64,000 bases of DNA. Source: Candidatus Dormiibacterota bacterium (GTDB lineage Bacteria; Chloroflexota; Dormibacteria; Aeolococcales; Aeolococcaceae). The translations under genes were made by a program, and so were the position numbers. This document shows, one piece after another, positions 5,000 to 61,571 of this stretch. The stretch lies in the NCBI GenBank assembly GCA_019245575.1, contig JAFARE010000009.1, positions 17,403 through 81,402 on the forward strand, in the 5' to 3' direction. Each line of letters begins with the position of its first letter. Positions within the stretch are counted from its first letter, which is position 1. The notes beneath the pieces are model-generated. The model saw nothing but the letters and a program-made list of their open reading frames with translations. It was not told where the DNA came from and did no database searches.

Positions 5000-5007
5000 A
5001 GCGGAGC

Positions 5008-8817: not shown

Positions 8818-9984
8818 ATGGACTTCGAGCTCAACGACGAGCAGCGTCACATCCGCAGCACGGTCCGCGACTTCGCCCAGGCTGAGATCGCTCCGACGGC
8901 GGCCGCATACGACGAGAGCGGCGAGTTCCCCTACGAATGGGTGCGCGGCATGGCCCGGCTCGGTCTGTTCGCGCTGCCGTTTCCCGAGTCCGTGGGCGGC
9001 GCGGGCGGCGACTTCCTCTCCTATGTGCTGGCCATGGAGGAGATCTCGCGCGCGGACGCGAGCGCGGGCATCACGCTCGAGGCGGCGGTGTCGCTGGGCA
9101 TCTCGCCGCTGGTGCACTTCGGCAGCAAGGAGCAGCAGGAACGCTGGCTCCCCGCACTGCTGAGCGGAGAGCGGCTCTGGTCGTTCGGTCTCACCGAGCC
9201 CGAGGCGGGGTCCGACGCCGGCGGGACCCAGACGCGCGCCCGGCGCGACGGCGGCGAGTGGGTGATCAACGGACGCAAGGTGTTCATCACCAACGCGGGG
9301 ACCGACATCAGCGCCGGCGTGACCATCACCGCCGTCACCGGCTCCTCCAACGGCACCAGGGAGATCAGCGCCATCGCCGTCGAGCGGGGCACCCCCGGCT
9401 ACACGCAGGCGCCCAAATACCGCAAGCTGGGTTGGCACGCATCCGACACGCGGGAGTTGATCTTCGACGACGTGCGCGTGCCCGTCGGCAACCTGGTGGG
9501 TGAGCAGGGCGCCGGTTATCGCCAGTTCCTGCAAATACTCGAGGGCGGCCGCGTCGCCATCGCAGCGTTGTCCGTCGGGGTAGCGCAGGCGTGCCTCGAT
9601 GCCGCCCTCGCCTATTCCGCGCAGCGGCGTCAGTTCGGCAAGCCCATCGCCACCTTCCAGGCGATCCAGTTCAAGCTGTCCGACATGGCCACGCAGATCG
9701 AGTTGGCGCGGATGATGACGTGGCGGGCCGCCTGCGCCATCGACGCGGGCAGGGACGCCGCGCCATACGCATCGATGGCCAAGCTGCACGCCTCCGAGGT
9801 GGCGACGGCGTGCGCCAGCCAGGCGGTGCAGATCCACGGTGGCTACGGCTTCATGGAGGAGTCGCCGGTGGCACGCTACTACCGCGACGTGAAGGTGAAC
9901 GAGATCGGCGAGGGCACCAGCGAGGTGCAGCGCATCCTGATCGCGCGCCACATCCTGCGTCCCTACGAGGTACTCGAGGATTGA
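8818..9984 (+). CDS. acyl-CoA dehydrogenase
   Basis: 388 aa. GLTEPEAGSDAGG and the C-terminal catalytic region NEIGEGTSEVQRILIARHIL. Confidence 0.9.
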   Translation: MDFELNDEQRHIRSTVRDFAQAEIAPTAAAYDESGEFPYEWVRGMARLGLFALPFPESVGGAGGDFLSYVLAMEEISRADASAGITLEAAVSLGISPLVHFGSKEQQERWLPALLSGERLWSFGLTEPEAGSDAGGTQTRARRDGGEWVINGRKVFITNAGTDISAGVTITAVTGSSNGTREISAIAVERGTPGYTQAPKYRKLGWHASDTRELIFDDVRVPVGNLVGEQGAGYRQFLQILEGGRVAIAALSVGVAQACLDAALAYSAQRRQFGKPIATFQAIQFKLSDMATQIELARMMTWRAACAIDAGRDAAPYASMAKLHASEVATACASQAVQIHGGYGFMEESPVARYYRDVKVNEIGEGTSEVQRILIARHILRPYEVLED

Positions 9985-11189: not shown

Positions 11190-12303
11190 GGTCGCGCTGC
11201 ACGATCCGCTGAGCGCGCGCATCGAGTCCTTCGTGCGCGACTTCGTGCGCCCCGTCTCGTCCGCGATGGCGCGCGGCGCAGGGCCGCGGCCCAAGGACGT
11301 CGTCGGCGCCGCAGGGGAGGCGGGGCTCGCCGGCATCCTGACGGCGCCGGACCTCGGCGGCGCGGGCGGCACGCACCGTGACTTCGTGTCCTTCATCGAG
11401 GCCGTGGCCCGGGAGGACGCGAGCACCGCCGTCATCCTGGACGTGCACCTCTCGGTCGGCACCGAGCCGATCATCGTTTTTGGCGATGATGACCAAAAGC
11501 GGCGATATCTTTCCCGGCTGGCGCGCGGCGAATGGCTCGCGGGCTTCGCTCTCACGGAGCCTGCGGGTGGCAGTGACGCGGCAGCGCTGCAGACGCGCGC
11601 GCTGCGCGACGGCGACGAGTACGTCGTCAGCGGCGCCAAGACGTTCATCACGGGCGCCGGCGACGCGGACGTGTACATCGTCATGGCGCGCACCGGCGAG
11701 GGCCGCGACGGCATCTCGGCGTTCATCGTCGAGTCGCGCTGGCCCGGTGTGAGCGCCGGACAGCCGTTCACCAAGCTCGGGCTGCACGGCTCGTGGACGG
11801 GAGAGGTGGTGTTCGACTCGGTGCGCGTACCCGCGGCGAACCGTCTCGGCGACGAGGGCAAGGGCTTCCGCGTGGCCATGGCGGCGCTGGACAGCGGCCG
11901 GGTGGGGATCTCGGCTCAGGCCGTGGGCATCGCGCAGGGCGCGCTCGACGTGACCGTCGCGCGTGCGCGAGAGCGCCGGGCAGCCGGACGCGAGGTCGAC
12001 GAGATGCACCTCGCCGACATGGAGGCATGGACCGCGGCCTCGCGCGCGCTGACATGGCACGCTGCGTCCATGGTGGATGCCGGACAGAACGTCACACGCG
12101 ACGCATCGGTCGCGAAGCTGTACGCCACGGATGCCTGCGTGTCCGTGGCGCACGCCGCTGTGGAGATGTGCGCTCCGGACTCGGCGCTGGACGATCATCC
12201 GGCCGCGGTGCGCTTGCGCGACGCCAAGGCATGCCAGATCTACGAGGGCACCAACCAGGTGCAGCGCATGGTGATCGCGCGGCGCCTGCTGCGGGTTGAG
12301 TAG
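11179..12303 (+). CDS. acyl-CoA dehydrogenase
   Basis: FALTEPAGGSDAAA...CQIYEGTNQVQRMVIARRLL. GTG 11179 is preferred (11-nt overlap with the thiolase). The ATG at 11125 would overlap it by 65 nt. Confidence 0.85.
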   Translation: MSTEVALHDPLSARIESFVRDFVRPVSSAMARGAGPRPKDVVGAAGEAGLAGILTAPDLGGAGGTHRDFVSFIEAVAREDASTAVILDVHLSVGTEPIIVFGDDDQKRRYLSRLARGEWLAGFALTEPAGGSDAAALQTRALRDGDEYVVSGAKTFITGAGDADVYIVMARTGEGRDGISAFIVESRWPGVSAGQPFTKLGLHGSWTGEVVFDSVRVPAANRLGDEGKGFRVAMAALDSGRVGISAQAVGIAQGALDVTVARARERRAAGREVDEMHLADMEAWTAASRALTWHAASMVDAGQNVTRDASVAKLYATDACVSVAHAAVEMCAPDSALDDHPAAVRLRDAKACQIYEGTNQVQRMVIARRLLRVE

Positions 12304-12315
12304 GATCAGGCGGCG

Positions 12316-13464
12316 ATGGACGTGCGTCTCAACGAAGAGCAGATGATGATCCGGCAGACGGTGCGAGACCTCGCGCGCTCGCGCATCGCGCCGCGCGCCG
12401 CCGAGATCGACCGCACCGGCGAGTTCCCCTGGGACGTCGTCGATCTCTTCCGGCAGCACGACCTCTTTGCGCTGCCGTTCCCGCCGGAGCACGGCGGACT
12501 GAGCGGGAGCGCGCTGACGCTCAACGTCGCCATCGAGGAGCTGGCCAAGGTGTGCGCCACCAGCGCGCTCATCCTCGCGGTGCAGGCGCTCGGCGCGTAC
12601 CCCGTGATGATCGCGGGCACCGACGAGCAGAAGCAGCGTCTGCTGCCCGACCTCGCCGCCGGCAAGAAGCTCGCGGCCTACGCGCTCAGCGAGCCCGGCG
12701 CAGGCAGCGACCCCGCCGGAATGGTGACTCGCGCCGAGCGGCATGGCGATGAGTACGTCATCACCGGCAGCAAGATCTGGATCACGGACGGCGGCGTGGC
12801 CGACACCATCACCGTGTTCGCCAAAACAGACCCGGCGGCGCGATCCAAGGGCGTGTCCGCGTTCGTGCTCGAAGACGCGCAGCAGCTCAAGGGTTTCCAG
12901 GCGAGCACGATCCACGGCAAGCTCGGCATCCGCGGCAGCAACACGGCCGAGCTGCAGCTCGACGAAGTTGTCGTGCCGGCGGCGAACCTGCTCGGCGAGG
13001 AGGGCGACGGATTCCGCATAGCGATGCGTGTGCTCGACCGGTCGCGACCCGGCGTGGCAGCGCAGGCGCTGGGCATCGCACAGGGCGCGCTCGACTACGC
13101 GGTGGGTTACGCGCGCGAGCGCAAGCAGTTCGGCAAGTCGATCGGGGAGTTCCAGGGCATCCAGTTCATGCTCGCCGACATGGAGGCGCAGACCGCGGCG
13201 GCGCGCGCGATGGTGTACTGGGCCTCGCAGCTGATCGACGACCACAGCCCCGAGGTCACGCACCATGCGGCCATCGCGAAGCTGCTGGCCGGCGACGCGG
13301 CGATGAAGGTCACCACCGACGCCGTGCAGATCCTCGGTGGGTACGGCTACGTGAACGAATACCCCGTCGAACGGATGATGCGCGACGCCAAGATCACGCA
13401 GATCTACGAGGGAACCAACCAGATCCAGCGCGTGGTGATCGCGCGCGACCTCCTGCGCGCCTGA
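12316..13464 (+). CDS. acyl-CoA dehydrogenase
   Basis: 382 aa. YALSEPGAGSDPAG...TQIYEGTNQIQRVVIARDLL. Confidence 0.9.
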   Translation: MDVRLNEEQMMIRQTVRDLARSRIAPRAAEIDRTGEFPWDVVDLFRQHDLFALPFPPEHGGLSGSALTLNVAIEELAKVCATSALILAVQALGAYPVMIAGTDEQKQRLLPDLAAGKKLAAYALSEPGAGSDPAGMVTRAERHGDEYVITGSKIWITDGGVADTITVFAKTDPAARSKGVSAFVLEDAQQLKGFQASTIHGKLGIRGSNTAELQLDEVVVPAANLLGEEGDGFRIAMRVLDRSRPGVAAQALGIAQGALDYAVGYARERKQFGKSIGEFQGIQFMLADMEAQTAAARAMVYWASQLIDDHSPEVTHHAAIAKLLAGDAAMKVTTDAVQILGGYGYVNEYPVERMMRDAKITQIYEGTNQIQRVVIARDLLRA

Positions 13465-13467
13465 CGT

Positions 13468-17146: not shown

Positions 17147-18843
17147 CCAGATTCCGCAAGCTTCGCTCGGCCTCGCTGCTCGCGCTGGGCGGATACGCTG
17201 CGGCTGCGCTGGTGCTGACCGCGCCCGCGTGGCTCCATGCGACGACGTCGTGGCCGGGCAACGTCGGCGATCCGTACAAGTTCATGGACTGGCTCGCATG
17301 GATTCCGCACGCCGTCGCTCATTTTCAGAATCCATTCTTCAGCAGCGCCGTCGATGCGCCGCGTGGCGTGAACCTGGCGTGGGAGACGACCGTTCCCCTG
17401 GGCGCAATCCTCGTCTGGCCGGTCACCGCGACGCTCGGTCCGATAGCCGCGTACAACGTCTGGCTGCTGGTCGCCCTGACGCTCGACGGCTGGTGCACGT
17501 ACGTGTGGCTGCGCCGCCATGCTCGCGGCGCGGCGGCCTTCCTCGGCGGCCTCACATTCGCGCTCGGCCCGTATCTGGTGACGCACAGCTACAACCACCT
17601 CAACCTCGTGTCCGCGTTTCCGATTCCGCTCCTGTTCCTCGTCATTGACCGATTCGTCGCCGGTTCGCTCACGTGGTGGAGAGCCGGGATGGCGGCAGGC
17701 GTGCTCGCCGCCGCACAGCTCTATCTGGCCGAAGAGCTGCTCGCTCTGGCCGCGATCGGACTGGTGGCGGCGCTGTTGGTTGCACTTCCATCGCACCCGC
17801 CGACGCTTGTGCGTGTTGCCAGGGCTTCGGCCCTGGCGATCGTGACGTGCGCCGTGCTCGCCGGTCCGATGCTGGCCTTTCAGTTCTTCGGTCCACTGGC
17901 GGTGCACGGCGCGATCCAGCCAAGCGACGTCTACGTCACCGATCTGCAGAACCTTTTCGTTCCGACCAGGCTGACGTTGCTCCATCCCGGGACCGTGAGC
18001 ACAGAGCTGGCGAGTGCCTGGACCGGCAACCTCGGGGAACAGACGGGGTATGTGAGCATCCCGCTGCTGCTGCTGACCGCCTACGCGCTGTGGCGGTGGT
18101 GGAGGGAACCACTCGTGCGCGTCGTTGGTGGCGCGTCGTTGCTGCTGCTGGTGCTGAGCCTGGGCCCCCATGTTCATGTGGGCGGCTCGACGTCGATACC
18201 TCTTCCCGGTCTCATCCTGATGCGGCTGCCGGTGGTGGACCACATGCTGCCCGCGCGGCTCTCGCTGATTGCCGCGATGGGCCTGGCCCTGCTGCTGGCG
18301 CTGACGCTGGATCGGACCGTGCTCGCATCGCCGCGCCGAGCGGTGACGGGCAGCGTGCTGGGTGTGCTCAGCGTGATCGCGCTCATTCCCACGGCGCCCA
18401 TCCCGACGTCGACGACCGACGTGCCCGCCTACTTCACCGCAGACGACGGTGCTCGCGCGCTGCCCAGGGGGACCGTCGCGCTTGTGCTGCCGTACATCGA
18501 CGACGGCGGCGCAACAGCGGTGCCGATGCTCTGGCAGGCTGAGTCCGACTTCCATTACTCCATGGTCGACGGCCTGGCCATCACGGTCGCGCCGAACGGT
18601 CACTCAGCATTCCTCGTCGACAGCCCGCTCCGCTCTGCGTTGCACGACATCCAGGTGACGGGCAAGCCACCGCCTGAGACAGACGATCTGAAGCGGACCC
18701 TCGACGCCGTCCTCAATGGCGACCACGTGTCGTTGATCATCGTCGGCCCCATGCCGAATCGCGGCGCCGCCGAATCCTTCGTGAGCTGGCTGACCGGCTC
18801 GCCGCCGCAGCACTCGTCCGGGGTCAGCATCTGGCGGTGGTGA
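17050..18843 (+). CDS. large polytopic membrane protein, function unassigned (possibly a GT-C/YfhO-like envelope glycosyltransferase)
   Basis: About 12 or more hydrophobic helices followed by a C-terminal soluble domain. Start is uncertain. ATG 17050 overlaps pfk by 97 nt. The next canonical in-frame start, GTG 17212, would delete the RFRKLRSASLLALGGYAAAALVL signal-anchor. A CTG at 17143 forms a CTGA overlap. Confidence 0.6.
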   Translation: MRRGGDRQDRRRGRRATARPARPLRAGTGLLLTRFRKLRSASLLALGGYAAAALVLTAPAWLHATTSWPGNVGDPYKFMDWLAWIPHAVAHFQNPFFSSAVDAPRGVNLAWETTVPLGAILVWPVTATLGPIAAYNVWLLVALTLDGWCTYVWLRRHARGAAAFLGGLTFALGPYLVTHSYNHLNLVSAFPIPLLFLVIDRFVAGSLTWWRAGMAAGVLAAAQLYLAEELLALAAIGLVAALLVALPSHPPTLVRVARASALAIVTCAVLAGPMLAFQFFGPLAVHGAIQPSDVYVTDLQNLFVPTRLTLLHPGTVSTELASAWTGNLGEQTGYVSIPLLLLTAYALWRWWREPLVRVVGGASLLLLVLSLGPHVHVGGSTSIPLPGLILMRLPVVDHMLPARLSLIAAMGLALLLALTLDRTVLASPRRAVTGSVLGVLSVIALIPTAPIPTSTTDVPAYFTADDGARALPRGTVALVLPYIDDGGATAVPMLWQAESDFHYSMVDGLAITVAPNGHSAFLVDSPLRSALHDIQVTGKPPPETDDLKRTLDAVLNGDHVSLIIVGPMPNRGAAESFVSWLTGSPPQHSSGVSIWRW

Positions 18844-18856
18844 GCAGGGTCGTCGC

Positions 18857-19030
18857 GCTGCGGGGTCCTGCCGCCTCAGGGAACCCTCGCCGTCCTGCGC
18901 AGGATTCCACCCCAGGTCTTCGGATGCGCCCAAGGACTCTCGTGGTGATGCGGGCGCGCGTGACCGTCTGACCTGGGTCCCGGAATCCTGCTCCGGCCGG
19001 CGCTGCCCCCTAAGGCGTCACCCGCGCAGC
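18857..19030 (-). repeat. copy A of an unclassified structured intergenic element (candidate ncRNA / 3'UTR element or MITE-like repeat)
   Basis: The reverse complement aligns with 24151-24339 and 61374-61571 (core GCGCCGGCCGGAGCAGGATTCCGGGACCCAGGTCAGA...CACGAGAGTCC...AGACCTGGGGTGGAATCCTGCGCAGGACGGCGAGGG). It folds as a long rod closed by GCTGCGGGG/CCCGCGCAGC. Confidence 0.8.
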
Positions 19031-19050: not shown

Positions 19051-20082
19051 CTACGCGGGCGACCAAGCCGGGGGTGACGTGGCGTCGAGGTCGAGGTTCT
19101 GCGTCACCTGCTTCGGCGGTTTCGGCGTCAGGCCTGCGGCACCGTCGATCCACCAGAGCTGGAAGTGTCCCGTCGCATCAGCGGGCGCGTAGTACACGAG
19201 GCTGCGCCCGTCCGGCGACCACTGCGGCGAGGAGCAGAGGCAGTTGTCGACCAGCGTCCGGGGTGTGCCCAGCGTGGTGCCCGTCAGCGGCGCCACCTCC
19301 AGCCGCGTGCTCTGCAATCCGGTGCCGCCGGTGCAGACCATCGCAAGCTGCGTGCCATCGGGAGACACGGCCGGCTGGCCGCAGTCGTCGGTGTCGTTCG
19401 TGAGGTACACCGGGTCCGCGCGCGCCCGGGTATCGATTGCGAGACGCGAGTACACGTTGCCGCCACTGATCTCGTACTTGGAGTAGAGCAGCGCGCCGCC
19501 GGGAAGCGGCACCGGGGCGACGTCACCACCGGTGTAGCTGAACGGGTCGGTCCACTGTTTCGACGCGATCTTGCCGGACAACGGACCCGCCCAGACCGCG
19601 AACTCGATCTCGTAGCTCTGGATCGACTTGGGCGAGTCGTAGCTGACGTACAGCGTCTGCCCGTCGGCGCTGAGGCGGGGCCAGAACATCCAGTGGTTGA
19701 GCTGGATGGTCGAGCTCGTCGTGGCGTTGTGGCTCAGCTGGTTGATCACGGTCCCGGCCACACCGTCGATTTGGAACACCTCCGAGTACGCGGCCGTGCG
19801 CATCACCGCCACGATGTCGTTGGTGCCGGGCACGATTGCGGGCTGCATCCACGTTCCGTTCTTGGGCAGGCGCAGCGCAGTGAAGGTGCCCCTGTTCAGC
19901 TTGTACATCACGCCCTGCTGGGCCACGTAGATCGTCCCGGGCAGCACGAACGCCGGCTTGCTCACGGTCGGCGTCGACGCTTCCGCGACGTGCGCCTTGC
20001 GCAGCGCGAAGAACCGGTTCACGCCGAAGGCGAACGCGCCCATCAGCGCCAGGAGAACGACGATCGTGAGTGCCCGCCTCAC
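19051..20082 (-). CDS. TolB-like beta-propeller (PD40/WD40-like repeat) protein with N-terminal membrane anchor
   Basis: N-terminal TM helix (ALTIVVLLALMGAFAF). Repeated ...SPDG..L.. / SADGQTLYV / SPDGTQLAMV / SPDGRSLVYY blades. GTG start, 10 nt downstream of the LCP gene. Confidence 0.7.
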   Translation of the reverse strand: MRRALTIVVLLALMGAFAFGVNRFFALRKAHVAEASTPTVSKPAFVLPGTIYVAQQGVMYKLNRGTFTALRLPKNGTWMQPAIVPGTNDIVAVMRTAAYSEVFQIDGVAGTVINQLSHNATTSSTIQLNHWMFWPRLSADGQTLYVSYDSPKSIQSYEIEFAVWAGPLSGKIASKQWTDPFSYTGGDVAPVPLPGGALLYSKYEISGGNVYSRLAIDTRARADPVYLTNDTDDCGQPAVSPDGTQLAMVCTGGTGLQSTRLEVAPLTGTTLGTPRTLVDNCLCSSPQWSPDGRSLVYYAPADATGHFQLWWIDGAAGLTPKPPKQVTQNLDLDATSPPAWSPA

Positions 20083-24150: not shown

Positions 24151-24339
24151 AAGGCGCTTTCGCTCGGGTGGTGCCGTGGGGGGAGGCGCCGGCCGGAGCA
24201 GGATTCCGGGACCCAGGTCAGAGGGACACGCGTCTTCGCATGAGCACGAGAGTCCTCGGGCGCATCCGGAGACCTGGGGAGAATCCTGCGCAGGACGGCG
24301 AGGGGTCCCCACGGCGACAGGACCCGAGCGAAGCGCCTT
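24151..24339 (+). repeat. copy B of an unclassified structured intergenic element (candidate ncRNA / 3'UTR element or MITE-like repeat)
   Basis: Helices P1 24151-24168/24323-24339, P2 24172-24181/24307-24316, P3 24198-24206/24281-24289 and P4 24212-24219/24271-24278. The apical domain carries the invariant CACGAGAGTCC. Confidence 0.8.
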
Positions 24340-33849: not shown

Positions 33850-34142
33850 TGCTGCTCGGCGCGATCGTCCTCTGCTTCCTCGTGCTCCTCGTGCTGATCA
33901 CCGACCGCGCGGGATCACGTCTCTTTCACGGCGACTCCCACAGCGTCTTCTATCGCTGCGAGGCGTGCGGGCTGCGCTATCCCCGCCGCGAGATCGCGGA
34001 CCCAGGGCTCCGCATCTGCCCCGCCGGGCATCCGATCGCACTCGAGGAATCGCACACGGCCGCCGGTGTGGTGGGAATCTTCGCGTGCATCGGGTTTCTC
34101 GGCGTGGCGCTCGTGCTCTTCATCATCGGTGTCGGGCACTGA
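33849..34142 (+). CDS. hypothetical small membrane protein with a Cys/His zinc-ribbon-like loop
   Basis: 97 aa: TM helix (LLGAIVLCFLVLLVLI), then YRCEACGLRYPRREIADPGLRICPAGH, then a second TM helix (VVGIFACIGFLGVALVLFII). TGATG overlap with pyrD. Confidence 0.55.
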   Translation: MLLGAIVLCFLVLLVLITDRAGSRLFHGDSHSVFYRCEACGLRYPRREIADPGLRICPAGHPIALEESHTAAGVVGIFACIGFLGVALVLFIIGVGH

Positions 34143-34154
34143 GCAGGAGCTGGC

Positions 34155-34760
34155 TCACAGCCAGCCGTTGGACTGTGCTTGGCGCACCGCCTCGATTCGG
34201 TTGCGCGCGCCGGTCTTCTGTATCGCCGACGAGAGGTAGTTGCGCACCGTCCCCTCGGAGAGGAACAGCCGCGCGGCGATCGTCGCGATGGTCGAACCGT
34301 CCACGGCAGCGCCGAGCACGTCGCGCTCCCGCTCCGTGAGCGGATTGGGTCCCGCAGTGAGCGCTGCCACAGCGAGCACCGGGTCGATGACGCGCTCGCC
34401 CGCCACCGCGCGGCGGATCGCGGCGGCGAGCTCCTCCGCTGGGCCGTCCTTGACGATGAAGCCGGAGGCACCGGCGTCCATCGCGCGGCGCAGATAACCG
34501 GGACGGCCGAACGCCGTGAGCATGAGGATCGTGCACTGCGGCAATGCGTCGTGCAGCGCCGCTGCGGCGGCGATGCCGTCCAGCCCGGGCATCTCGATGT
34601 CGAGCAGCGCGACGTCCGGCTGCGCGCGCCGCGCGGCGCTCATCACCTCGTCCCCGCGGCCCACCTGGGCCACCACGTCGATGTCGTCCTCGAGCGCGAG
34701 CAGCGTGGACAGTGCGCCGCGCACCATGCCCTGGTCCTCGGCGATGAGGACGCGGATCAC
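34155..34760 (-). CDS. NarL/LuxR-family response regulator
   Basis: REC domain (VLIAEDQGMVR...DVALLDIEMPGLDG) plus a LuxR HTH (LTERERDVL...IAARLFLSEGTVRNYLS). Confidence 0.9.
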   Translation of the reverse strand: MIRVLIAEDQGMVRGALSTLLALEDDIDVVAQVGRGDEVMSAARRAQPDVALLDIEMPGLDGIAAAAALHDALPQCTILMLTAFGRPGYLRRAMDAGASGFIVKDGPAEELAAAIRRAVAGERVIDPVLAVAALTAGPNPLTERERDVLGAAVDGSTIATIAARLFLSEGTVRNYLSSAIQKTGARNRIEAVRQAQSNGWL

Positions 34761-39277: not shown

Positions 39278-39288
39278 GCCGCGATATT

Positions 39289-45680: not shown

Positions 45681-45931
45681 GCGCGGTGCTCGACCTCAGC
45701 GAGTCCGAGGAGCTGTGCACCGAGCCTCTGCCGATCGAACGCGTGCGGCGAGCGTACGACGGGCTCAGCCCTGGGCAGGTGCTCGAGGTGCGCTCGCGCG
45801 TCGCCGAGCACGCATTCATGGTGCGCACCTGGAGCCGCAAGCAGGGGGCCACGCTGCGCGTCGATGATCGCGTCGACGGCGTGCACCGGCTGGTCATCGA
45901 GCGTGGTGCAGCAGCGCCCACTGCCGGCTGA
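45677..45931 (+). CDS. small TusA/SirA-like protein (tentative)
   Basis: 84 aa. LDLSESEELCTEPLPIERVRRAYDGLSPGQVLEVRS... resembles the LD.RG..CP.P...K......G..L.V pattern of TusA. GTGA overlap with the upstream stop. Confidence 0.5.
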   Translation: MSAVLDLSESEELCTEPLPIERVRRAYDGLSPGQVLEVRSRVAEHAFMVRTWSRKQGATLRVDDRVDGVHRLVIERGAAAPTAG

Positions 45932-47213
45932 CTTCCTCATCGGCTGCGCCACGGCCGCGCACCAGGTCGAGGGCGGCATCGACAACGACTGGATGCGCTG
46001 GGCGCGCGACGACCCCGCACGCATCGCGGACGGCAGCGACGCGTCGGTCGCCTGCGATCACTTCCGCCGCCACCGCGAGGACCTGCGACAGCTCGGGGCC
46101 ATGCACCACAACGCGCACCGCTTCTCGCTCGAATGGGCGCGCATCGAGCCACGTGCTGGGTGTTTTGACGGAGCCGCGCTGGCGCATTACGCGGAAGTGC
46201 TGCGCACCTGCCACGAGAGCGGCATGGAACCGGTCGTGACCCTGCACCACTTCACGCTGCCGCGCTGGCTGGCCGACAACGGCGGCGTGCTGCACCCGGA
46301 GGCCCCGCGATTCTTCGCACGCTACGCCGCGGCGTGCGCCGAGCGGCTCGGCGGTGACGTGCGCTGGTGGATCACGATCAACGAGCCCACGGTGCTCGCG
46401 TTCATGGGGTACCTCATCGGACGCTGGCCGCCGGGCGAGCAGTCGCTGCCGCACATGCTCGCGGTGCTGCGCGCACTGGTCCGCATGCACGCAGCGGCCG
46501 TCACCGCGCTGCGTCGGGTGGCCGTCCGTCACGGTTGGACAGCGATGGTCTCCATCGCGCACCAGGAGCGGCCGCAGCGCGCCGCCTCACGCGCGTCGCC
46601 GCTGGACCATGCAGCCGCGCTGCTGCCCAACTGGGTGTTCAACCGCTGGTTCCTGCACTGCTGCAGGCGCGGCCGGCTGCTGCCTCCGGTGGGCGCCGGC
46701 CAGCGCGTGGCCGGGCTTCGCGGCTCGCTGGACTACATCGGCGTCAACTACTACACGTACGACGTGACGCATTTCGACCTGCGCTCACCGCGCACGTTGT
46801 TCGCGCGGCAGGCGTCGAACCCGCTGCTGCCGCGCAGCACGTTCGACTGGACGATCGACCCGCCCGCCATGCGCGACGCGCTGCTGGCCCTCTGGCGCGA
46901 GTTCTCGCTGCCGCTGCTGGTGACCGAGAACGGCGTGGCCGACACTGACGACGAGCTTCGTCCTGCGTTCATCACGGACCATCTCAACGCCGTGCTCGAC
47001 GCGGTCGATGACGGCGCCGATGTGCGTGGCTACCTGCACTGGACGGCGTGGGACAACTGGGAGTGGGCCGAGGGGTTCACGCAGCGCTTCGGGCTCATCG
47101 CGGTGAATCGCGAGACACAGGAGCGCCTCCCCAAACCCAGCGCCGCGCTGTATGCGGAGATCTGCCGCGCCCACGCGGTGCCTTCAGCGGCGGCTGCTCA
47201 GGGCGCGGCCTGA
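45903..47213 (+). CDS. glycoside hydrolase family 1 (beta-glucosidase-like)
   Basis: FLIGCATAAHQVEGG, RFSLEWARIEP, acid/base ITINEP, nucleophile LLVTENG, WDNWEW. GTG 45903/45906 start overlaps the preceding ORF. Confidence 0.85.
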   Translation: MVQQRPLPADFLIGCATAAHQVEGGIDNDWMRWARDDPARIADGSDASVACDHFRRHREDLRQLGAMHHNAHRFSLEWARIEPRAGCFDGAALAHYAEVLRTCHESGMEPVVTLHHFTLPRWLADNGGVLHPEAPRFFARYAAACAERLGGDVRWWITINEPTVLAFMGYLIGRWPPGEQSLPHMLAVLRALVRMHAAAVTALRRVAVRHGWTAMVSIAHQERPQRAASRASPLDHAAALLPNWVFNRWFLHCCRRGRLLPPVGAGQRVAGLRGSLDYIGVNYYTYDVTHFDLRSPRTLFARQASNPLLPRSTFDWTIDPPAMRDALLALWREFSLPLLVTENGVADTDDELRPAFITDHLNAVLDAVDDGADVRGYLHWTAWDNWEWAEGFTQRFGLIAVNRETQERLPKPSAALYAEICRAHAVPSAAAAQGAA

Positions 47214-47794
47214 ACGATCCAGCGGTCGGTGTTGATGTCGGCGCCCACGCACGTCTGCATCGTGAGGAGCGGCGTGGACGAGCGCTCGCGCAGCCAGGAC
47301 ACGTCGTTCCAGCGGATGCGGCCGACGACGTTCGAGATGTGGAACGCCTCCACCTGTTTGGTCGTGTAGTCGTGCAGCAGCACGAGCTCGCCCTTCTTCG
47401 CGAAGAGCAGCGTGCCGAACATGCCGCGGAGGCCGTGCGCGTAGAGATAGCTGTTGCCTGCGATTCCAGGCTCCGCCGTTCCCGGGTAGTGCAGCGCGAC
47501 CCAGTCGGGAATGTTGTTGGAGCCGTCGCCCTCGCGCACCGGCAGCGCGATCTTCAGCGCCGGTATCTCGATCCACAGGCCGGTGCGCGGGCCGACCGGT
47601 TGCGGGCCGGCGCTGTGCGTGGCCGCGTACTCCGAGATCGGCGGCTCCAGTGCGATGGCCGGCGTCTGCATGCACTGGATGGCGAGCACGATGCCGAGCA
47701 CCACCGCAGCCAGGCCGGCCAGGATCGACAGCCGCCGCGACCAGCGGCGCAGCCGAGACTCGTCGGGGTCAGCGACGGAGGGATCCGGCTCCAT
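47198..47794 (-). CDS. sortase family transpeptidase
   Basis: N-terminal TM anchor, His region YLYAHG, catalytic-Cys motif LLTMQTC (TLxTC-like). Lies directly downstream of a protein with a sorting signal. Confidence 0.75.
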   Translation of the reverse strand: MEPDPSVADPDESRLRRWSRRLSILAGLAAVVLGIVLAIQCMQTPAIALEPPISEYAATHSAGPQPVGPRTGLWIEIPALKIALPVREGDGSNNIPDWVALHYPGTAEPGIAGNSYLYAHGLRGMFGTLLFAKKGELVLLHDYTTKQVEAFHISNVVGRIRWNDVSWLRERSSTPLLTMQTCVGADINTDRWIVQAAP

Positions 47795-47800
47795 GCGGGA

Positions 47801-48574
47801 TCAGGGGACCTCGAGACGGGCGCGCGGCGAGCGGCGCCGGCGCCGCAGCGCGGGGCCGGCGAGCGAGGCGAGGGCCACGGAGAAGCCGGCTGAGGCCAGC
47901 GCGATGGCTGCCACCGGGGCCGGATGCGGCGGTCCGCCGGTGAAGGGGTTGCTCGTCGCCGCGGCGGCGACAGCGCCGGTCGTCTGGCCGGAGCCGCCTC
48001 CGCCGCCGTTGCCGTTGCCCCCGCCATTGCCGTTACCGCCGGTGGAACCGGGCGACCCGGATGTCGTCGTCGTCGGGCAGCCGAGCGGCGGTGGCAGCGG
48101 CAGCGGCAGACAGGTTGGAGGGCTGCCGCTGGGCAGGCAGAAGGTGTTAAGCGGCGCCGGCAGGCACGTGGGCGGCGTGGTCGTGGCGCAGAAGGTGTTG
48201 AGCGGCGAGGGCAGACAGGTGGGAGGGCTGCTGGGAAGGCAGAACGTGTCCAGCGGCGAGGGGAGGCAGGTCGGCGGCGACGATGGCGGGCTCGGGGAGG
48301 GGATGCAGAAGGATTGGAGCGGGGTCGGCGCGCACGTCGGTGGGTCGCCGTTGGGCGACGGGAGGGTGGGCAGCGAGCCCGAGGGAAGCGTGGGCAGCGA
48401 GCTCGACGACAGCGTCGGCAGCGCGGGCAACGTGGGAGCCGGCAGCGGCGTGGGCAGAATTCCCGCGGACGCGTGGGAGGGTGCCAGCGCCGTGGTTGCG
48501 GCAAACGCGGCGGAGCCGGCCATGACCAGCCCGGCGACGCACCGTCGTGCAGTGAACAGCTTCCTGATGGCCAC
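47801..48574 (-). CDS. secreted Pro/Cys-repeat surface protein with a C-terminal sorting signal (NPFTG)
   Basis: GTG 48574 gives the signal peptide VAIRKLFTARRCVAGLVMAGSAAFAATTALAPSHASA. This is followed by LPTLP repeats, five PPTC-x8/9-FC repeats, a GGNGNGGGNGNGGGGG tract, then NPFTG plus a hydrophobic helix and RRRRR. Confidence 0.7.
   Translation of the reverse strand: MAIRKLFTARRCVAGLVMAGSAAFAATTALAPSHASAGILPTPLPAPTLPALPTLSSSSLPTLPSGSLPTLPSPNGDPPTCAPTPLQSFCIPSPSPPSSPPTCLPSPLDTFCLPSSPPTCLPSPLNTFCATTTPPTCLPAPLNTFCLPSGSPPTCLPLPLPPPLGCPTTTTSGSPGSTGGNGNGGGNGNGGGGGSGQTTGAVAAAATSNPFTGGPPHPAPVAAIALASAGFSVALASLAGPALRRRRRSPRARLEVP
48077..48343 (-). repeat. in-frame tandem coding repeat (5 units of ~17 codons)
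   Basis: PPTCAPTPLQSFCIPSPSPPSS / PPTCLPSPLDTFCLPSS / PPTCLPSPLNTFCATTT / PPTCLPAPLNTFCLPSGS / PPTCLPLPLPPPLGC. Confidence 0.85.
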
Positions 48575-48714
48575 GTCCCGCCACGCCTCCGTCCACGCTC
48601 CACCCCCGTGACGCAGCCGGCTGCGCGCCGCCCCGCCGCGGGTTTCTACGTATCGATCAACGCTGTGCCTGTGGGAAACCTGCGGGCCTCTCTCCGCCGC
48701 GTACGCCGCGCTAC

Positions 48715-48815
48715 CATCGAGCTGCGGGAGCTCGGGCCGACCGGGCTGAGAGGGCGAGTGCAGCCTCGCCGACCGCGGAACCTGATCCGGGTAATGCCGG
48801 CGCAGGGAGCGCCTC
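48715..48815 (+). promoter_or_regulatory. TPP (THI-box) riboswitch
   Basis: GGGCUGAGAGGG...ACCGCGGAACCUGAUCCGGGUAAUGCCGGCGCAGGGAG matches the THI element core (CUGAGA ... ACCUGAUCYGGRUAAURCCRGCG.AGGGA). It lies directly upstream of thiC. GCCUCC (48811-48816) can pair with the thiC SD GGAGG (48855-48859). Confidence 0.85.
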
Positions 48816-48855
48816 CGCCCCGAGGCGGGACGGCACCTGACGCCACAGCGCGTAG

Positions 48856-50586
<1,731 letters not shown>

Positions 50587-55867: not shown

Positions 55868-56066
55868 TTCACTGACCGCAGCTACTGGGGCGTGGCTCGG
55901 GCGGTGGAATGCACTCTGCGCAGGGCGTAAGGAGGCCGCGGCGGTCCCCGCGGCCGACGGTAGCGGCAGCGGACGGCGGTCAGGCCGTCCGCGCAGCGGC
56001 AACCGGAGCAGAGTGCTCCCACCGCCATGAACCACGACGATCGTCAGCGGGCGGTCAGTGAATCAG
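55864..56066. repeat. ~200-bp multi-hairpin element closed by a perfect 16-bp inverted repeat (candidate ncRNA, terminator/insulator or MITE)
   Basis: CTGATTCACTGACCGC (55864-55879) is the exact reverse complement of 56051-56066. Inner helices: 55902-55907/56019-56024 and 55911-55919/56008-56016. Two apical hairpins: 55934-55955 and 55969-55992. Confidence 0.7.
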
Positions 56067-61373: not shown

Positions 61374-61571
61374 CTGAGCAAGGGTTGTGTGCGGGTGACG
61401 CGGTGGGGGGCCGCGCCGGCCGGAGCCGGATTCCGGGACCCAGGTTAGAAGTCTTCGCGCTATCGCGCGAACACGAGAGTCCACGATCGCCACCCAGACC
61501 TGCGGTGGAATCCGGCGGAGGACGGCGAGGGGTCCCCGAAGCGGCAGGACCCGCGGACAACCCTTGCTCAG
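61374..61571 (+). repeat. copy C of an unclassified structured intergenic element (candidate ncRNA / 3'UTR element or MITE-like repeat)
   Basis: A 15-bp outer helix CTGAGCAAGGGTTGT (61374-61388) / ACAACCCTTGCTCAG (61557-61571). P3 is GCCGGATTCC (61425-61434) / GGAATCCGGC (61507-61516). It shares the core blocks of copies A and B. Confidence 0.8.

Follow-up and report, generated by a model that had tools for sequence, protein, structure and literature searches.

Copy A, a hairpin element located between two convergent genes, is probably a piece of non-autonomous mobile DNA, a MITE/REPIN-like interspersed palindromic repeat of 163 bp that multiplied in one Candidatus Dormibacteraeota lineage. 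We infer its mobility from the distribution of the element; a transposase, a RAYT or a parent insertion sequence with matching ends was not found in the DNA examined. Small palindromic repeats have been investigated thoroughly in Proteobacteria and in a few Firmicutes, and we know of no description of them in Candidatus Dormibacteraeota, an uncultured soil lineage known from metagenomes only. In the following, the window is the whole stretch of 64,000 nt of DNA that was analyzed.

Copy A and its repeat family

The features of copy A, its neighboring genes and the two other copies in the window are:

17212–18843, plus strand: convergent gene, 543 aa as called in the MAG; stop 18 nt from copy A
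18857–18862: private outer-stem arm, GCTGCG on the plus strand; pairs with 19025–19030 and occurs in no other copy
18862–19024, minus strand: copy A, 163-nt hairpin element; covariance model R1 182.6 bits over model positions 1–163, nhmmer E = 3e-48, aligned with 11 other copies
18872–18881, minus strand: 3' strand of the P2 helix of copy A; plus strand CGCCTCAGGG, minus strand CCCTGAGGCG
18928–18945 (approximate), minus strand: apical region with the block CCACGAGAGTCC, from alignments A2/A3
19008–19017, minus strand: 5' strand of the P2 helix of copy A; plus strand CCCTAAGGCG, minus strand CGCCTTAGGG
19025–19030: private outer-stem arm, CGCAGC on the plus strand; partner of 18857–18862
19051–20082, minus strand: PD40/TolB-like gene (Pfam PD40); stop 26 nt from copy A
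24165–24326, plus strand: copy B, flanked by two stops, that of a small ORF (24139) and that of a DUF2905 gene (24345)
61392–61553, plus strand: copy C, flanked by two stops, that of a transglutaminase-TPR gene (61364) and that of a 111-aa gene (61568)

As predicted from the letters of the window, the element occupies most of the 207-nt gap between the stops at 18843 and 19051. The minus-strand ends of copy A read 5'-CGGGTGACGCC...GGCAGGACCC(C)-3', and the minus-strand RNA folds with an MFE of -110.7 kcal/mol (z = -5.5), a value that was as good in 0 of 200 shuffles. The fold of the plus strand is weaker (-100.7 kcal/mol, z = -4.2). The G+C content is 72% in the element and 70% in the window. 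The PD40/TolB-like protein is identical to one called in the MAG GCA_019242035.1 (Candidatus Dormibacteraeota), and a Pfam search with the convergent gene at 17212–18843 remained without a match. The co-orientation of copy A with the TolB-like gene, to which the original prediction had pointed, is real and at the same time uninformative, because between convergent genes either orientation matches one neighbor.

Among the helices of the family P2 varies most, and it carries compensatory changes (pairs 20–30 with 156–166 in alignment A2). In the alignment columns of the copy A helix, copy B has TGCCGTGGGG/CCCCACGGCG, and a comparison of A and B revealed two pairs that are changed on both sides (U-A to G-C and A-U to G-C) and a third differing pair, which is U·G in A and U-A in B. 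Two compensatory swaps and one G-U/U-A pair had been predicted for this helix, and the prediction was exact down to the coordinates. The closing helix had been regarded as unrelated in sequence among the copies, which holds for its outer six pairs: these are private to copy A. The helix is composite, however: its inner CGGGT/ACCC(G) pairs are part of the element and show conservation in every copy. The apical block CCACGAGAGTCC is nearly invariant, with a single-base difference in one copy and a differing first base in B and C. The invariance of the exact 18-mer by which every copy was retrieved is an ascertainment effect.

BLAST against the window aligned copy A to copy B with 85.5% identity over 165 nt (E = 6e-50, B match 24162–24325), in agreement with the predicted identity of about 85%, and to copy C with 78.8% identity over 189 nt (E = 2e-38, C match 61388–61570). 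The family comprises at least 12 distinct copies, three in the window and nine (D–L) on soil metagenome contigs of the same population, and the pairwise identity of the 11 complete cores ranges from 78 to 96% with a mean of 87%. The search of the JGI metagenomes was performed with the 18-mer GGATTCCGGGACCCAGGT, which is common to A, B and C, and retrieved 27 contigs. The full element is present in 14 of them, all from Ga0213880/Ga0213874, which represent the nine new loci D–L and, found again, A, B and C. Retrieval by one exact 18-mer means that copy number and family diversity are lower bounds.

An 18-mer scan of the GTDB representative genomes gave 13 matches, all of them seed-only chance matches. 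Plasmids searched by BLAST in distant mode yielded no match, and two scans of viral contigs yielded 0 matches and 23 chance matches, respectively. With Rfam, the whole window gave no matches at gathering thresholds, and a search around copy A at E <= 10 produced only sub-threshold chance matches. The covariance model R1, built from the complete cores, was searched against 328 kb and detected nothing beyond the known copies; this includes ~100 kb from the relatives' loci, where nhmmer and R1 found no element, diverged copies included. Likewise, the 11 kb downstream of copy F contain no further copy.

That the family is an artefact, i.e., a chance palindrome or an assembly error, is hardly conceivable. 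Repeats in short-read metagenomes can be chimeric, but the twelve loci have unique flanking genes, the same loci were recovered independently in the NCBI MAG and in the JGI, ENA and Logan assemblies, and the BLAST E-values within the window range from 1e-38 to 1e-50. The artefact reading is refuted by these independent assemblies. At a finer scale, locus F (L075 981–1142 vs. L022 4235–4396) differs in a three-base patch, GTTGCCTC vs. GTCCCCTG, with three substitutions within six bases, while the MAG and two metagenome assemblies are otherwise identical over ~250 nt. The patch is located in the apical variable segment, its MAG version corresponds to copy I, and it results either from gene conversion among the copies or from chimeric assembly. 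As metagenome assemblies can mix reads of different copies, some of the apparent variation may be chimeric, and fine-scale variation among such repeats calls for caution. It is also likely that short-read assemblies of this phylum break at repeats of this kind.

The window contains other repeated sequences. A 51-nt tandem repeat at 48096–48271 (3.4 copies, 69% matches) lies inside the minus-strand ORF 47801–48919, which has reiterated PPTCLPSPL(N/D)TFC units together with a Gly/Asn-rich tract and may encode a repetitive secreted or cell-surface protein. Moreover, 68–78% nucleotide identity was found between 9631–9959 and 13126–13457 and between 9883–9959 and 12217–12293; these stretches match acyl-CoA dehydrogenase genes in the relatives' loci and thus represent a local paralogue cluster.

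Empty sites and private outer stems

At the A site, the same two convergent genes are separated by 15 nt (CAGACCGCAGCCGGC) in an 86% relative (L042) compared to 207 nt in the window, and in more distant relatives only 6–9 nt lie between the TolB-like gene and the next gene. At the C site, the same two stops are separated by 10 nt in an 88% relative, 18 nt in an 85% relative, 33–34 nt in a 79% relative and 16 nt in a 73% relative, whereas the gap in the window is 203 nt; the 79% relative carries a short GC hairpin and a T run at this position. The relatives have 73–88% protein identity (83–88% for the closest ones), and their intergenic DNA is unalignable. The element is absent from their A- and C-site loci and from the flanks up to 10 kb. 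Set against the 207 and 203 nt of the window, these short gaps show that the element is an insertion when the closest relatives available are taken as the reference. In addition, the A and C gaps contain ~30 nt more non-element DNA than in the closest relative. In an 83% relative (L079) the contig ends exactly at the stop of the TolB-like gene (1753), and from this assembly break it could be that some repeat follows the TolB-like gene there also.

Directly outside the core, each of the 11 complete copies has its own inverted repeat of 4–16 bp, which prolongs the terminal helix of the element. Copy C has the longest stem with 16 private bp (GCTGAGCAAGGGTTGT / ACAACCCTTGCTCAGC), and its right arm overlaps the stop codon of the neighboring gene: it enters the last bases and the stop (TCAGC, conserved in relatives), and the left arm presents the mirror image GCTGA in non-coding DNA. 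The stems of copies L and B are CCGGTACCTCTCG/CGAGAGGCTACCGG and GGCGCTTTCGCT/AGCGAAGCGCC. The duplex of a copy's own flanks has a mean of -22.4 kcal/mol (-18.3 kcal/mol for copy A) compared to -12.4 kcal/mol for flanks combined across copies, and 0 of 5000 permutations were as good. Pairing starts right at the junction and leaves no loop bases: the first flank pair is complementary in 10 of 11 copies without gaps and in all 11 if the one-base shift of A is allowed, and offsets 2–8 are complementary in 6–8 of 11 copies vs. 0.2–0.5 in the cross-copy controls. The flanks are inverted, and no direct repeat indicative of a target-site duplication was found at a consistent boundary offset. A search for a conserved target motif in the flanks revealed no more than a weak bias, with G preceding and C following the element, and a guide-like relation between the variable segments and their own flanks was not detectable (mean longest shared k-mer 7.0 on the diagonal and 7.0 off it).

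Since the cores are 78–96% identical and the stems have no sequence in common, the stems do not represent an element-borne helix that diverged by compensation. They are either derived from the target or were made at or after the insertion. Two routes to the outer stem could be envisaged. The element could integrate at the dyad center of a short palindrome, or, which we slightly favor, fold-back or template-switch synthesis starting from the hairpin base could copy one flank in inverted form at or after integration, so that stems would be created or extended after integration. A folded single strand would be joined to the target, and its paired 3' end would then serve as the primer for synthesis that runs back into the flank. 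That integration itself makes the private stem, with an inverted target copy in place of the usual direct duplication, we regard as unlikely; to our knowledge, such an inverted-copy outcome of transposition has not been described for bacterial elements. If the element does make palindromes, this would point to an undescribed integration chemistry. The private, junction-tight inverted flanks in place of direct duplications thus pose a testable question, namely whether palindromes are sought or made.

A second structured element, which is unrelated to copy A, is located on the plus strand at 55905–56025 of the window, with glnB on one side and a ferredoxin/glnA operon on the other. Its core of 84 nt (AGGGCGTAAGGAGGCCGCGGCGGTCCCCGCGGCC...) shows 84.5% identity to a sequence in a 72% relative (L043 6115–6248). 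The site there is non-orthologous, namely the DUF2905/mutase gap in which the window has copy B. Each copy has its own near-perfect outer stem of 19–25 bp, the MFE amounts to -86.6 kcal/mol (z -4.8) for the window copy and to -106.8 kcal/mol (z -6.8) for the L043 copy, and no match to an Rfam family was obtained. This anatomy, a core in private perfect stems, is the same as in the family of copy A, and hence stem-making could be general in Dormibacteraeota.

The original prediction had also offered a mobile element that inserts into pre-existing terminator palindromes. Mobile insertion with a private stem is strongly supported by our analysis, whereas the pre-existing palindrome is not shown. 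The idea that the element enters palindromes located after stop codons, so that the private arms are the halves of a broken target, is a sub-variant of the mobile DNA reading and differs just in the origin of the outer stem; we consider it doubtful, albeit quite conceivable. It is in line with the complementary flanks of every complete copy and with the fact that the elements lie where terminators sit, as the distance from the stop codon to the element is 7–32 nt in A–F, H and L, i.e., in every resolvable case. Natural short hairpins at gene ends also exist: the 79% relative has one at the C site, and in the window GCTGGCT-CAC-AGCCAGC (34141–34165, near 34150) overlaps the stop of a convergent gene at 34155, and there is a precedent in REP halves beside insertion sequences that are target fragments (PMC1525189). 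However, empty sites that reconstitute a palindrome were not encountered in the orthologous gaps of the diverged relatives (73–88% identity): the private palindromes of A and C are missing at the empty sites examined, with gaps of 10–34 nt (for A, the one relative whose intergenic DNA is readable; for C, five lineages), and these relatives are too diverged to reveal the pre-insertion state. Given the junction-tight pairing, the target would furthermore have to be a perfect palindrome without a loop and with a length of up to 16 bp. The window contains 36 perfect hairpins of >= 8 bp vs. 21–35 in shuffled sequences. The ~30 nt of extra non-element DNA in the A and C gaps and the mirror image GCTGA in the left arm of C also speak against such a target. 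According to a rough gene map, the other convergent gene pairs usually abut within 3–11 nt or overlap and are free of hairpins, and genes that abut in this way leave no space for terminator hairpins. The element-free convergent junctions on this map are:

5000–5007: element-free convergent junction
13465–13467: element-free convergent junction
39278–39288: element-free convergent junction
47197–47214: element-free convergent junction

The long gaps at 33850–34154 and 45681–45863 show no unusual structure and probably hold missed small genes.

Constraint on the hairpin and the better-folding strand

With added copies the compensatory signal persisted. In the alignment of 12 sequences, 97% of the cells in the hairpin are paired, eight pairs, of which six lie within the core, have changes on either side, and the observed covariation was reached in 0 of 500 shuffles. 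The structure is thus under constraint. The strand starting with CGGGTG folds better in 11 of 11 copies, with an advantage of 0.7–13 kcal/mol (mean 8.4) using RNA parameters and a mean of 7.8 kcal/mol using DNA parameters. In addition, G·T cells outnumber A·C cells by 40 to 4, with G·T at ~10 variable pair positions and A·C at three. This asymmetry points to the folding of one particular strand, be it RNA or single-stranded DNA. Compensatory changes are common in the DNA hairpins of REPINs (PMC3116915), and for this reason covariation does not single out an RNA over a DNA hairpin.

The gene context of the copies was compared with the orientation of this strand. Copies A, B and C are located between convergent genes, and D (DsbD -> aconitase), E (OtsA -> MerR), F (unknown -> ThiS/MnmA) and H (FtsK -> UDG) are in tandem contexts, in which the upstream stop is much nearer to the element than the downstream start. 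The better-folding strand is antisense to both neighbors in all four of these tandem copies checked with Pfam; J is probably antisense and I probably sense. The orientation bias is suggestive only, as the copies are too few for significance.

A structured non-coding RNA family, acting in cis in 3' UTRs or as a small RNA, with functional loops and a functional apical 12-mer and with P1 free to vary, is an improbable explanation. The part of the original prediction that assumed structural selection on an RNA stands as far as the covariation above shuffles is concerned, and the conserved asymmetric internal loops, the nearly invariant block CCACGAGAGTCC, the excess of G·U far above A·C and the asymmetry of the strands would fit a functional RNA too. 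A, B and C could also receive read-through from an upstream gene of the same orientation. However, the private P1 sequences cannot arise by compensatory mutation while the cores are 78–96% identical, and the element is absent at the orthologous sites and in all DNA sampled from relatives. We therefore disfavor an RNA gene, also because Rfam provided no match, because the orthologous sites are empty and because in D, E, F and H the better-folding strand runs antisense to both neighbors. No sigma-70-like promoter was found in a consensus scan of the element, and there is neither a T-tract terminator within it nor a T run after the stems, so that the GC-rich stem-loop followed by a T run of an intrinsic terminator is not present. 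Selection on a transposition intermediate that can fold, and not an RNA function, best accounts for the compensatory changes. As a general caution for motif-discovery pipelines, compensatory changes in a repeated hairpin alone do not mean an RNA gene.

As mobile DNA, the element would move as a folded single strand, and selection on mobility would keep the hairpin, not the sequence, of some of its helices. Such folded-strand mobility would explain both the compensation in P2 and the excess of G·T over A·C on one strand. After insertion, a hairpin this stable (about -100 kcal/mol) at the 3' end of an mRNA could block transcription or a 3'-exonuclease in either orientation. A role as a 3'-end barrier is plausible, and we regard it as a by-product and not as the element's reason to exist.

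Comparison with known small repeats and insertion sequences

REPINs are REP doublets that form hairpins and are mobilized by RAYT transposases (PMC3116915). The element resembles them in being non-coding, ~100–160 nt long and intergenic, with two inverted arms that form a long imperfect hairpin in single-stranded DNA or RNA, and in having no direct target duplication, conserved blocks in the arms, a more variable middle and compensatory changes; two inverted units with a spacer in a compensated hairpin are present as in a REPIN. REP sequences carry a conserved GTAG or CGTC tetranucleotide at one end (PMC3733652), whereas no such tag is common to all copies of the element: GACG near the 5' end is restricted to A, C, J and K, and CGTC near the 3' end to D–G and I. 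A RAYT gene was not seen among the few window ORFs scanned with Pfam. REPINs occur in hundreds of copies, in contrast to the 12 recovered here (a lower bound), and the host is an uncultured lineage related to Chloroflexota and not a Proteobacterium. Private flanking stems are, as far as we know, not a described feature of REPINs.

The likeness to MITEs such as Correia/Nemis, ERIC, RPE, Chunjie and QMITE concerns the size, the non-coding nature, the inverted arms, the intergenic location, the stable stem-loop transcript and the lineage-restricted bursts. Within the ~50–500 bp of MITEs, the element is non-coding and multi-copy, and its termini (CGGGT...ACCCG) and whole arms are imperfect inverted repeats. 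MITEs have terminal inverted repeats together with direct duplications, but the element lacks a direct duplication. They also usually have a recognizable parent insertion sequence, and none was found for the element; a covariance-model search of ~330 kb for partial matches revealed no element ends next to ORFs. Furthermore, MITEs are typically AT-rich (review PMC10969869) in contrast to the 72% G+C of the element. The element works like a REPIN or a MITE and at the same time fails strict membership of both, because it has no direct duplication (MITE) and no common GTAG/CGTC tag (REP).

Palindromes are targeted by insertion sequences of the IS110 family (IS621, ISPa11, ISPpu9/10) and the IS3 family (IS1397, ISKpn1; PMC1525189). 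With these the element shares complementary flanks outside the element proper, which in the insertion sequences are half-sites of the target, the location between convergent genes and, for the IS110 type, the lack of direct repeats. They differ in having a transposase gene and one conserved REP consensus as target, whereas the element has 163 nt, no ORF and arms that differ at every site. Finally, in a known small repeat that sets strong hairpins at the 3' ends of genes, sequence and host are unrelated to those of the element, which matches neither a T tract nor a terminator consensus, but the placement of both at gene 3' ends is the same.
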